From Bispira polyomma (Eukaryota): 64,000 bases of DNA. The position numbers and the translations under genes were made by a program. Under the pieces are notes generated by a model. The model had not been told where the DNA came from and did not search any database. It saw only the letters and a list, made by a program, of their open reading frames with translations. The stretch covers positions 28,644,001 through 28,708,000 of the forward strand of contig OZ287753.1 in the NCBI GenBank assembly GCA_965649765.1, in the 5' to 3' direction. Of the stretch, positions 51,401 to 60,400 are shown in pieces (position 1 is the first letter of the stretch; each line of letters starts with the position of its first letter).

Positions 51401-54400
51401 TTTTAGATTTATCAATTTATGGTTTGAAAATCGGAATATTTAAAAATACCCTGTCAGACCTACTTTGCTTAGCATTGTGCAAGAGTGTATAAAGAAAGGG
51501 GTATGGGCCGAAATACAATGGAAAAGGTAAGTTTAGAAACTTGTAAACTAAAATAGCTGTTTTGAAATATAACTCACCCCAGGTAAGTCCTTCTTTCCAC
51601 GTCGACTCCCTGCTGCATACTGCTCAGCTCAAAGTCGCCCTGTGCCTGTGGATAGCCAACAAGCCCACCCGGGTCATCTATTACGTTTAGCCCAGACTGC
51701 AAGAAAACCACCAACCAACAACGACACTAAGAGAGCATAGCCCCCATTAAAATACGCACAGCACTTAAGAGAATATAGCTTCCCCCCTTAAAAACAAGCA
51801 CAACACTTAAAAGAGTATAGCTTCCCCCCCTTAAAACAAGTGCAACACTCAAAAGATCATAGCTTCCCCCTTTAAAAACAAGCACAACACTCAGGAGAGC
51901 AAAGCCCAACCCATATCATGCTTAATAAACACATATGACATTAAATCACAGAGAACAGCCCCCTCCCCTCCAAGAAAAAGGGGCCTATTTATACAGTAGA
52001 GCCACTGTTATCCGCGAAATGTTGCGAGTCTCCGAGGAAAATTTTGTTTAAGTATAAAACAATAGGAAATCAAGTGATGCTAGATATAAACTTGGTAATT
52101 TTGGAGAGGTAAATATGTTCATACATCGTCAAATATTTGGATAACAGCAGTTTAGATTACAGAGGTTCTACTGTAGCATTTCAATAGAGACCATAAGTGA
52201 GCATTTCCATGCAGGCAATTTTCTGAGGTAACCAGCCAACGGCAATTCCATCACTTTCATTGATTTATAAGCAAGTGTTTCCATGTGAGCAACGCAGACG
52301 GGCGGCGGGCAATGTCAGGCAATTTTTTTGGTACCTGGAGCAAAAAAAAAATCGCCTAGCAATGCCTGTCGCTGTGTAAACATTGCCGATTCTTTAGAAT
52401 TAACTCAGGAATTAGAGAAGATCAAAAAAATCGTGAAAATATGGTGAGAAAGCTTATTTTTTTTTTTGGGGGGGGGGGGGGTTATTGTGCTTTTTGTTGC
52501 ATCCAAATCGGTTCAGAAATGGGTAAAATATTTCCATTTTGGTTGAATAATTCTATAGATACATAAAAATTGCCGATTGCCCGTTGAATGTCGGCAGATC
52601 GCTGTCGCCAACTGCCGACACGCAAACGCACACTTATAGATTTTACAAAGCTTGAGTTCGTATTTTGAAGTAAAACATCTAAGAAACTCAAAATTTGAAT
52701 ATTTTAACCAAACTTTTCTTTAAAAATCAGTCCCATGTTTTACTGCATCATAATAAACATCAACAGAACAAGCAGACGGCAACAAAATTAAGGCTTTGAA
52801 TTTTTCATATTTCCACAACTTTAACATCACATATTACAAATGTCACTTCATAAAAATTATAACTACCAAGTATAGATTACATATAAATATTTCAAATTAA
52901 GCTGAAACCTGTATAAAGGTTTAACAATAAAATCTGCATAAAGAGCTTATAATAAAGCATAAATAGTATTTCTTACATATCATCAGGCATAAAAACTTTT
53001 AAGGTACAGGTAGAGAAAACAAAATCTTCCAAATCAAGCCAAGACTTATTTTGATATTATATCCAACAGAAAGAAACACAATGTCATGTAACAATAGCGG
53101 TTAGAAAGCTGTAAACAATGCTTTGAATTTATTACAAATAATGGTAAAAACAAATTTGCCACTATAAATAAAATACTACAGTAAAGTGATATTTCATTGC
53201 TCGCATGCAGTGTGGGAATCATAGGTAGTGGACGATAATATTTTTGGTTGAAAAAAATCACTGTGATTTCTGATTTTAGGTGATAAAATAAAGCAATCAG
53301 TGGCAAATAGAGTTTATATCTAGCATTAGAATTTTTAATTGAGCCTGAAGCCAACAGAAACAAGAGTTGTCTTTTTTAAAAGACACCTGTGCATAGTATG
53401 AATTACACGTTGGTATGGCCACTATATTTTCAGGCACCCAGACACCACTCAGTTTGGACAGGTCAATTGCTTTCAACCAATTCATTGGGGCTTTACATAT
53501 TATCACTAAGATGGTGGCACCCTTTTCAGAATAAAAACAATATCAGGCTGTGCCTGATAAAATTTACCAATATCTTCTAATGCATCTACTAAAAACTGCA
53601 GTACTTTCCATGTCATCCACAACTTTAAATAGCCTAAGGTTACTATTGACTTATGAAAAAAGGCATAGAGGAAAAATGAAAAAAATAAACTATCTTGGTA
53701 AATGGAAGGGATTTTATATATTGAAAGAGCCGTGATTATGTGCAAGCTGTTAGCTCGAGTGATTAGAATGTAAGAGGATTGGTTCCCTGAACTCCATGTG
53801 CCAGAAATTGGTCAACTACTTTGGTATAGGGAATTCCAAATTGGCAAGGGGGGTAGGCGAGTTTGAAGAGATAGGTTTTAAGTTTTCAGATAGACAAAGT
53901 TTTGCAGAAAGAAAAAAACAGAAAAATAAATCATATTACAGTATAACGTCTACTGTCTTAACTCCAATTAACTGAATATTTTATTTTCTGAACTCATTTA
54001 TTCTCCCAAATTGATAGTTAATTTTCTATTATCTTCCATTTTATGAACATTGAATGTTCAACATTCTATTATCTAAATAGATTAGCAACTCTCTCAAGGT
54101 GTTCGGATGATAAAGGTTCTATTATAATTTTTTTTTTTTCAATTTGTTTGTTCGATATAGAAATTTGCAAAAGGGAATCTGTATAAAATAAGTCATAGCA
54201 ATATCAACATAATTTTGTATTGGCATTATGGAAAACATTAGAAGAGATGGAACAAAATATAGATCCGTATATCTAGCTGTTAACATGTATTCTGTGGGCC
54301 TTTCAAAATTGACTTGAAATTGAAAGGTTTGTAGGAAAAAGGAGAATTTGCAAAGCTAAAAACTAATCAATACCAAGAGCAACTCTGCATCAACAGATGA

Positions 54401-57400: not shown

Positions 57401-60400
57401 CATATATAAAACTAAAGAGGTTCATACAACTAACTAAAACTTAATAGATACCACTAATATATTATCTCTTGATCATCTTGAGACAACTATTGTCATGAAT
57501 ACCAAGAATCCAAGACCTATCATGGTATCCAGCATTCATTTGGCAAAGTGGTATTTTGGCAGAAATACTATATCTTAAATGGATGCGGTCAACTTTAATT
57601 ATTTTAAAATAATTTTTTGGATGGGAAAAGAAATCCCCGTGTTATATTAATTTTTTTTTAAGAAAAATGGAATTTTATGTTACAAAAATTCCACTTTAAA
57701 ATTCAAGAAACAAACTTAAGGTCAATCCTAGATCAGATTTTCTTTTTGCAGAGCCTCATCAACAAGTGGCTATACTAAATATAAAGCCTAACATTATTGA
57801 ATTTATTTTTGTTTTCATATTCAAAAGTAATTTGAAAGTCCCAAAGTTTTACCCTGCTTAGAGTAATATGCACTAAGATTCTCATTAATAAATGCTCCTT
57901 AATAAACAATTCTAAAACTGAGGCTCAGTATTAAACTGAATTTGTTTAACCTTTATGAGCCAAAATGTTAAAATTATATGCTTGTATTTCTTTCATTAAC
58001 TAAAAGAGCAATCAGTAGAGTGCAAACTTTTCCCAAGGCTCAGTAAAGTGAAATAGTGAAACAGCTGAATTCACTGAACAATTTAATGACTTCTGCCTTA
58101 ACCCTTGCCTGATCTCTTCACCGAATTCCATGTGTTAAACTGGTTCAATATTTTTTTGTGTAATCCTGGTGACAAACAAACTAACCAATTGACATATGCA
58201 AAAACAAACTTGTAAGTCAGGCTTACGTTTTGTTATGTTGTTCACCAATAAAAGAATTTTTCAAAGTAAGATTATTACTTAACTGGTTTAATTTTGAAGT
58301 ATGTTAAAACAAGCACAGACAGAATTTAGTATTTTACAATAAAAGCTAAAATTAGTGTGAAAACCTTTTTAAATCAAAAGAACAGAAGAGTTAATGTATT
58401 TAGTGTCATATTTGGACACAAACACCATCTCGAGAGAGAGTTGTCTTGTATTCACAAAAGTAATGACATCACTTAACAAATAATTAAGTACTGCAAACAT
58501 AGCACACAGCTTTACACTTAATGACCTTAATTTACCTGGCCCTACAAAGAGTCATAAAAACATAGATAAATGCATGTTAGATCTATTGAAACAGTAAAGG
58601 ACTTACAATACAGTAGACTCTGTATAAATCGAATCACAAAAATCCGAGGTAATTGGTTCGAATTACACCGAGTTCGAATAATTACTTTCGTGGGCTTTGG
58701 GTCAAGTCCGTCGGAGATTGCATGTGAATAGGCGATAATAGGTGATTTATCGCAAAACTCAACAATAAAAGCAGAATAAAATAAACTTTATCATACAAAT
58801 CATTTGTTTTATTGTGTTTCAATATATAAACATTAAAGAACACCTAAAATAACTGAAAACATCTTTATACAAGCACTTTTACATATAATGGACATACCTC
58901 TTATGCAAAATTAAATCCTTACTCTAATCTAAACATTTAAAATTAAGGTCAACAGCTCATTTTTGTTTAAAGTAGTCTTTGATAGTGGACTGTTTCTTAG
59001 AGGCATCAGCAGTCTTATTCACAAGAATTTCGATTTTAGTGAGACATTCAAGCTCCTCTCGAGTGTTATTAATAGATTCTATCCATCTTCTCATTTTGTG
59101 GCACATCTTTTCCACCTCTTCTTGACTGGGCATAGGTTCTTCCTGGGGTTCATCCTCATCTTCCTGGTCACTTTCCTGGTCATCCTCCTCTACTCCTTTA
59201 ACCTCCTGGACAATATCATCATCTGTTGGCATTTCAGATGTGATGAGCTCATTGTTTATCTGTGTGTATTGAGCGAATTCCTCACTTTCCTCACTGTCTG
59301 CTGGTTGAATGAGCTCACTGGGAGATTGATACTCCCTGAAGGCCATGTGAAGCCAGCAGTTAGCTATGGTCTCCTGTGTAACCGTCATCCAAGCTTGCTG
59401 GGACTCTCTTAATGCATCTAGGATGCTCAGACTGAAGTCCACTCCTTTGTCCAATGCCTCAATATGTTTTTTATTGATTGAGGTGCCATAATGATGCTTA
59501 AAGCATCTAATAATCCCTTGGTCCATGGATTGAAGAACACTGTTACAGTTTGGAGGCAAGAAATACATTGTGATAGCCTTCAGACCACTCACCGACTTGG
59601 GATGGGCAGAGCAGTTGTCTAATAAGAGGGCAATCTTCCTATTTTGGAGGGACATCTTGCTGTCTAACTTCCTCAGCCAGTCTATGAAGAAGTCACCAGT
59701 CATCCAGGCCTTCTTGTTTGCCTTATATTCCGTTGACAGAGTCAGGTGACCTCTAAATGACCTTGGTTTTTGTGATTTCCCTATGCAGAGAAGGGGTACT
59801 TTATCAGAACCATCCATGTTTGAACAAAACATGATAGAGATTCTTTCTTTGGACATCTTGCCGCCTGCACATTTTTGGCCTTTAAAAGCTAGGGTTCTGT
59901 TAGGCAGAATTCTATAAAAAAGGCCAGATTCATCGCAGTTGTAGATGTCCTTGGCCTCATACTCCTGCAGAATCTCTGTCCATACAGTCTGATGCCAGGC
60001 ATCCACATCTGGAATTTGGACTGATCTCTCCTCTCCTTGAATTGACCTCAGCCTGATATTGTATCGCTCCTTAAAACTTGTCAGCCAGCCCTGGGAGCAC
60101 TTGAAGTCAAGATATCCCATGTCTGTGGCGAATTTCTGGGCCTTCTCAATCATCAGAGGACCACTGATGGCAGCTCCTTGATCCATCTTACTGGTGAACC
60201 ACTTCAACAGAGCAGCACTGACATCTTCATATTTACCCACTTTCATTCTTTTTCTTGCTAAATTTTGATCCCCACTTTTAAGTGTTTGTTTAATTTTGTT
60301 TGAATTTTTAATCCATGTACTAAGGGTATTGAGTGGTACCCCATATTTCTCAGCAATAACCTTTTTTTTTCCTCCCCCATCAACCTCTAACAGTGCTTGG

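Follow-up and report, generated by a model that had tools for sequence, protein, structure and literature searches.

A six-base segment, GGCCAG, on the minus strand of a long intron in a V-ATPase subunit a gene raises the question of whether it is a microexon that adds glycine and glutamine to the protein, or a pair of splice-like sites that stand side by side by chance. The segment lies in the window, a 64,000-nt stretch of the genome of the annelid Bispira polyomma, next to a Tigger transposon, and an earlier note had proposed it as a candidate microexon, possibly a neural one of the kind controlled by SRRM3/4-type proteins carrying an eMIC domain. Annelids are a phylum with little-studied microexons, and none of the 12 papers listed in a literature search on them dealt with annelid microexons. 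On sequence grounds, we find an unused decoy somewhat more likely than a spliced-in exon.

Results

The host gene was modelled with tblastn and splice-site placement as 21 exons that join into an open 804-aa frame, and that frame together with PF01496 profile matches along the gene identifies it as V-ATPase V0 subunit a. The features of the gene and of its paralogue on C13 that matter here are as follows.

64000-24331, minus strand: host gene, divergent V-ATPase subunit a paralogue, with its start codon 1,241 nt past the window end
62011-61883, minus strand: exon 4, ending ...FMLE, phase 0
61882-51697, minus strand: intron 4, GT..AG, phase 0, 10,186 nt, A+T-rich
51696-51578, minus strand: exon 5, variable loop, starting SGLN
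near 29424-29284, minus strand: additional host exon encoding an acidic loop ahead of the last membrane segments, found after the 21-exon model
C13:24393950-24394062: exon 5 of the C13 paralogue, starting with eight codons that end in CAG

The additional exon has several possible acceptors (29424, 29412 and 29388) and a donor with C at position +5. Intron 4 is 7.6 kb long when the Tigger is left out.

Two V-ATPase subunit a genes were seen in the 1.035 Gb genome, the window gene and the one on C13. The C13 paralogue shares about 85% identity with a1-like proteins of annelids and oyster and, in what was only a quick tree, falls with siboglinid and alvinellid annelids (support 94). The window gene shares 45-56% identity with each of the 32 other sequences compared and sits on the longest branch (1.58), which makes its place in the tree unsure; it appears to be a fast-evolving duplicate. 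Exon 5 has an 87% identical counterpart in a relative, P0121, the sole match among 50% representatives, and this is a 75-aa ORF in which the intron runs into exon 5, so that it holds no exon 4/5 junction. Exon 4 as a protein query had no match among three candidates, exon 20 returned 790 matches with no close orthologue among the 120 listed, and an alignment search with exon 5, covering proteins of at least 133 residues, found none in 192 candidates. Both paralogues were searched for a second, mutually exclusive exon 5, and none was convincing.

The proposal presumed that isoforms vary at the junction of exons 4 and 5, and in homologues they do. Mammalian a1 chains in the PDB differ there by seven residues (AELHHQQ present or absent), oyster subunit a isoforms also by seven, two siboglinid proteins have quite different loops, and sandfly proteins have alternative loop sequences. 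Across 60 homologues the loop is 16-80 residues long, and it is predicted to be disordered: the AlphaFold2 model of an annelid homologue (not the window's protein) gives residues 144-175, which follow closely on the junction, a pLDDT below 50. The parallel drawn with vertebrate ATP6V0A1 was right about the seven-residue difference, but the six-residue difference among the mammalian a1 chains is located in the C-terminal loop. Nor does the C13 a1 orthologue in this genome offer a cassette: the first eight codons of its exon 5 match the optional seven-residue segment of oyster and mammalian a1, and they run on into the rest of exon 5 without a break, so that they do not form a cassette of their own and probably reflect an old alternative acceptor. 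Gly-Gln was found at the junction in none of the homologue loops compared, among which there is no orthologue of the window paralogue.

We take exon 4b of the C. elegans gene unc-32 to map to the same loop. That exon is described as neuron-specific and under a CELF protein (PMC3585155), SRRM4 is said to regulate ATP6V0A1 splicing in a statement that leaves the exon unnamed (PMC13387927), and a neural exon-skipping event in ATP6V0A1 is mentioned in PMC8638120. In passages of PMC11393946, PMC2835735 and PMC10352029 we found no exon positions, and our literature search turned up nothing on a microexon at the junction of exons 4 and 5.

Read directly from the window, the minus strand carries CTAAC, TGC, a U-rich tract, TAG, GGCCAG and GTAAAT in that order, each element in the place that had been claimed for it.

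58580-58576, minus strand: CTAAC, branch-point-like, at -39
58574-58572, minus strand: single UGC (TGC) at -33, after the branch point and before the pyrimidine tract
58570-58542, minus strand: U-rich pyrimidine tract and TAG acceptor, acceptor score 10.3
58544-58542, minus strand: TAG acceptor triplet
58541-58536, minus strand: GGCCAG, candidate 6-nt exon (Gly-Gln), phase 0/0, the top microexon-like site among the host gene's 38,495 intron bases
58535-58530, minus strand: GTAAAT, donor-like, after the exonic CAG, score 6.45

The candidate has the size and frame of a microexon, being six nucleotides and hence a multiple of three (3n) between AG and GT flanks; the intron is in phase 0, and translation across the inclusion gives FMLE-GQ-SGLN, as the earlier note had it, and meets no stop. 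Its flanking sequence is single-copy in a genome search. Contigs of three DNA runs cover 58160-58625 and agree at every letter, but they possibly come from the assembled sample, so their agreement argues only against assembly error. In the same runs introns and repeats are covered in the manner of genomic DNA, so that they are uninformative on splicing; neither a second allele nor a Tigger-free allele was found among the matches listed in them, whose contigs drop rare variants.

To score the splice sites we used matrices from 37 acceptors and 36 donors, a small set taken from the two paralogues. The candidate acceptor, at 10.3, stands above 22 of the 37 modelled acceptors and above the acceptor of exon 5 (9.6), and is the second strongest of the 26 intron sites that score at least 6, exon-5 acceptor included. 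The 39-nt zone free of AG upstream of the candidate is longer than that of 25 of the 37, and a CTAAY at the candidate's distance was found in none of them. The donor (6.45) is above only eight of the 36 modelled donors, whose +5 base is G in 33, T in two, C in one and A, as in the candidate, in none. The additional host exon, with its C at +5, has a donor that scores the same as the candidate's.

These scores bear on the improbable reading that GGCCAG is a real microexon included outside neurons or constitutively, with no part for eMIC, so that the normal protein would read FMLE-GQ-SGLN. The acceptor that beats that of exon 5, the strong branch point and the exonic CAG before GT, which supports pairing with U1, are consistent with it, and a loop as variable as 16-80 residues suggests that two extra residues would be harmless. 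A strong donor alone is reported to be able to drive microexon inclusion without SRRM4 (10.1101/2024.09.17.613571); the candidate's donor, however, falls in the weaker quarter of those modelled, the gene's frame is open without the six bases, and the class of similar sites described below has no excess of 3n lengths.

The same bases admit a further, very improbable reading with two versions. In one, CAG|GT at 58536/58535 would be a recursive (ratchet) splice point that regenerates a donor, the intron being removed in two steps and the mRNA left unchanged; in the other, the TAG would be a poison acceptor, with translation beyond it reaching a stop after four codons. CAG does stand directly before GTAAAT, downstream of a branch point and tract, and the phase-0 frame opened at 58541 does close after four codons. 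Yet a recursive site has a strong acceptor directly before the donor (YAG/GT), and here the CAG scores only 2.4 as an acceptor, behind the TAG at 10.3, the first AG after the branch point. Recursive splice sites favour far longer introns than this one, which is only 10 kb, or 7.6 kb without the Tigger.

How readily such a site arises by chance was estimated from the intron itself. Among 1000 dinucleotide shuffles at relaxed scores, a 3n microexon-like site appeared in 495, one with CTAAY in 14 and one with UGC as well in four; at the candidate's own scores, the corresponding numbers of shuffles were 28, one with a branch point and none with UGC too. In 1.088 Mb of scanned strand-bases three stop-free 3n sites reach both of the candidate's scores and only the candidate has branch point and UGC, although the thresholds were set after the candidate was known. 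Extrapolated to the 38.5 kb of host introns, the chance of such a site is about 1.5-5% per gene, which is notable for one gene and common over a scan of many windows.

The neighbouring transposon lies in the same sense as the host.

61160-58611, minus strand: full-length Tigger/pogo DNA transposon, 2,550 bp, with TA on both sides

It has terminal inverted repeats, the TA duplication and a stop-free 534-codon transposase frame (60561-58960) with DDE_1, HTH_Tnp_Tc5 and CENP-B_N, and full-length copies elsewhere, found by scoring 40 of 261 candidates, are 98% and 97% identical to it, from which we infer that it is young. Its end is 30 nt from the CTAAC and 70 nt from the candidate exon, the two distances that the earlier note had given. 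A microexon derived from the Tigger was ruled out, all signals lying outside the element and the flank being single-copy in the genome search, and a fusion of host and transposase is unlikely, with in-frame acceptors before the transposase that score 1.5 and -4.6. The element also carries AATAAA at 58813, which could cause premature polyadenylation. More ends of the form CAGTAGA/TCTACTG-TA occur at window positions 52000, 52173 and 33240 and at C13:24393800, suggesting many small Tigger-type elements in subunit a introns, one of which ends about 25 nt before the acceptor of exon 18. At the G+C-richer start of the window there are open frames on the minus strand at 1510-854 and 3376-3032, which we take to be transposon- or retroelement-associated, a MADF-like and a gag-like piece.

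Neural microexons of the proposed kind depend on an eMIC domain, and the genome encodes one in two exons on C8, as had been presumed for this animal.

C8:35482011-35482175: eMIC/SRRM_C exon of a Srrm234-like gene, profile over the cut-off
C8, about 35490407: following eMIC exon, beginning SARKRPVPY

The claimed UGC signature fared less well: a UGC does lie between branch point and acceptor, but it is the only one within 80 nt and stands at -33, upstream of the tract, so that the signature is weaker than claimed. Fly eMIC exons are described as having very weak acceptors, long AG-free zones, UGC near the acceptor, UCUC-rich tracts, strong CUAAY branch points and weak donors (10.1101/2021.02.24.432780). 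In vertebrate work on SRRM4 targets, a UGC was walked through the interval that separates the tract from the AG; UGC is reported in 74-79% of targets, is not strictly needed and may sit near the branch point, while the response mostly suffered when UGCs were inserted immediately downstream of the branch point, and donor strength has the largest influence (10.1101/2024.09.17.613571). Against this pattern the candidate has the strong CUAAY branch point and the long AG exclusion zone (CTAAC at -39, 39 nt), and it has neither the UGC near the acceptor nor the weak 3' splice site (10.3). Its donor score of 6.45 is to be read against a published rule that varies by phylum, with strong donors in mammals and weak ones in flies.

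Two in-frame cassette-like exons, of 33 nt and 24 nt, were seen on the plus strand at C9:60538968 and 60543462, in an intron of a BAR-domain gene that we take to be Endophilin B. The putative 24-nt microexon has UGC at -16 and -13, a CUCUC tract, an acceptor of 3.5 and a donor of 10.6 (GTAAGT), which would be the textbook eMIC layout and the opposite of that of GGCCAG, if from a single example; judged by its sequence, it is a better neural-microexon candidate than GGCCAG. Four genes are described in which fly and mouse share the position of an eMIC exon, and Endophilin B is among them. In the C13 gene, the homologous intron 4 has a single-copy 24-nt in-frame candidate at C13:24383714, plus strand, that scores 11.1/8.5 and has neither CTAAY nor UGC.

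Genome-wide, we counted the pattern CTAAC..TTTNYAG-[3-27 nt]-MAG|GTAA and, as a control, the same pattern read backwards. The 3-27-nt class has 100 matches against 115 in the control, and the 6-nt class 17 against 11 (one-sided p=0.17). By hand count, 25 of the 100 have an AG-free gap, the 75 with an AG between branch point and acceptor having been dropped; nine of the exon lengths among these 25 were re-derived by script, and the candidate's separately. A length divisible by three is found in nine of the 25, candidate included, where nine are expected (p=0.57), and since nine of the 25 allowed lengths are 3n, the class has no frame bias. A stricter pattern with a GTRAGT donor gave seven against one and was not used, because six of the seven are one repeated sequence.

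The context of ten class sites was examined with flanks of 10 kb on either side. The other 3n sites with UGC number four: two lie in sense introns, one open and one with a stop, compared with about two of five non-3n controls; one is surrounded by exon-like pieces of a gene on the opposite strand, and for one no clear host was seen. Most of what the class shows is what chance would give, and the class may hide a few real members. Assuming that between a fifth and a quarter of sites placed at random would lie in sense introns, one or two of the roughly nine 3n AG-free sites of the genome would be in frame and stop-free by chance. The candidate motif exceeds chance locally and not genome-wide. 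Of the two sites in sense introns, the one with a stop, a 24-nt site with all features at C5:46861976-46862042, plus strand, lies in a 773-nt intron of what is presumably a PP2A-A (scaffold)-like gene, named from peptides, and would add a stop, so it may be a decoy or a poison exon. The open one, an 18-nt in-frame, stop-free candidate with CTAAC, an adjacent UGC and a very strong donor (13.1), occurs at C12:47316922-47316983, minus strand, in an intron of a gene that we take, again from peptides, to be aldo-keto-reductase-like.

Discussion

Our preferred reading, by judgement and not as a computed posterior, is that GGCCAG is probably an unused decoy, chiefly because its motif class is no commoner than the control read backwards. 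A good acceptor and a modest donor would have met by chance in a 10-kb A+T-rich intron, exon 4 would normally join exon 5 directly, and GGCCAG would be skipped or included only at noise level, six bases being presumably too few for exon definition of the ordinary kind unless a dedicated activator takes part. The strong acceptor, the distal UGC and a donor without G at +5 would make a poor fit to the eMIC pattern, and the Tigger would be an unrelated recent insertion that supplies none of the motif's bases.

Several observations count for the decoy besides the class standing at control level (100 against 115, 17 against 11) with no enrichment of 3n lengths. Of the four other 3n sites with UGC, one sits among opposite-strand pieces and one adds a stop; the UGC is at -33 where the putative Endophilin B exon has it at -16/-13, and not one of the 36 donors has A at +5. 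The host is a duplicate on a long branch, and in duplicated genes tissue-specific exons are reported to be less common (10.64898/2026.09.05.749416). Moreover, a young insertion of 2.5 kb has been tolerated 30 nt from the branch point. Counting against it, the motif is locally rare (14 in 1000 with the branch point, four in 1000 with UGC too, one in 1000 at its own scores with a branch point), in frame and stop-free at a junction that varies in homologues and whose loop is predicted to be disordered. Furthermore, the genome encodes the eMIC domain, UGC is reported as not strictly needed and may sit near the branch point, fly eMIC exons have weak donors and strong CUAAY branch points, a presumed real exon of the host uses an equally scored donor without G at +5, and another member of the class lies in a sense intron, in frame and without a stop. 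A real microexon of any kind is accordingly possible, though we hold it to be unlikely.

Among the readings as a real exon, the one that was originally proposed, a lineage-specific neural microexon under eMIC control, is distinctly unlikely in our estimate. In that reading the Srrm234 isoform that carries the eMIC would bind close to the branch point and promote U2 recruitment in neurons, and Gly-Gln would lengthen the disordered loop in the cytosolic N-terminal domain, with sorting or the binding of partners possibly tuned as a result. It draws on the CUAAY, the 39-nt AG-free zone, the UGC between branch point and AG and the stop-free 3n length, a combination matched in full in four of 1000 shuffles, and on the eMIC exons in the genome. 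It draws also on reports that name mammalian ATP6V0A1 as an SRRM4 target (PMC13387927), that describe neural exons arising repeatedly in the same gene families (10.64898/2026.09.05.749416) and that give C. elegans unc-32 its neuron-specific exon 4b (PMC3585155). On the other side, the UGC position, strong acceptor and modest donor are unlike the published layout and the putative Endophilin B exon, the class has no genome-wide enrichment, the host is a divergent paralogue and not the a1 orthologue, and the homologue loops compared, with no orthologue of this paralogue among them, have no Gly-Gln at the junction. In its specific form, a young lineage-specific 6-nt eMIC neural microexon with a branch-point-proximal UGC in a fast-evolving annelid subunit a paralogue, we regard it as doubtful to the same degree.

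If GGCCAG were a true neural microexon, a loop that worms, insects, molluscs and vertebrates vary otherwise by splicing would have one more recurrent neural exon gain, and the recent Tigger 30 nt upstream would be a natural experiment, with and without, on the birth or loss of such exons. Two more residues in a disordered loop, if they are included, would probably have little effect, and the exon would belong to an already known kind. If it is the decoy that we favour, its value is in calibration only: a branch point, a UGC and AG-6 nt-GT recognised by eye are insufficient in an A+T-rich 1-Gb genome.

Comparison with known systems

The transposon shares with Tigger/pogo elements (Tc1-mariner superfamily) the inverted ends CAGTAG.., the TA target duplication and the CENP-B_N, HTH_Tnp_Tc5 and DDE_1 domains; there is nothing unusual in it, and no part of the candidate exon or of its signals falls within the element.

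With known isoform variation in subunit a, in mammalian a1, oyster, siboglinid, sandfly and unc-32 exons 4a-c, the candidate shares the junction and the low-confidence loop. That variation consists of extensions of seven or eight residues or of whole alternative loops, in the conserved a1 gene, whereas the candidate would be a two-residue cassette in a divergent paralogue, a case seen in no sequence that we retrieved.

Neural microexons controlled by eMIC proteins (SRRM3/4) have in common with the candidate a 3n length below 27 nt, the CUAAY, the AG-free zone, a UGC between branch point and AG and a vesicle-related host, and the regulator's domain is encoded in this genome. The candidate departs from them in a UGC that stands at -33, before the tract and not close to the AG, in an acceptor that is strong and not weak, in a U-rich tract with a single CUCU and in a donor without G at +5.

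Decoy (pseudo-exon) pairs in long introns share with the candidate the good acceptor and plausible donor, a frequency at control level and the lack of frame bias; compared with the typical decoy, GGCCAG stands at the high end of its class, in frame at a junction known to vary.
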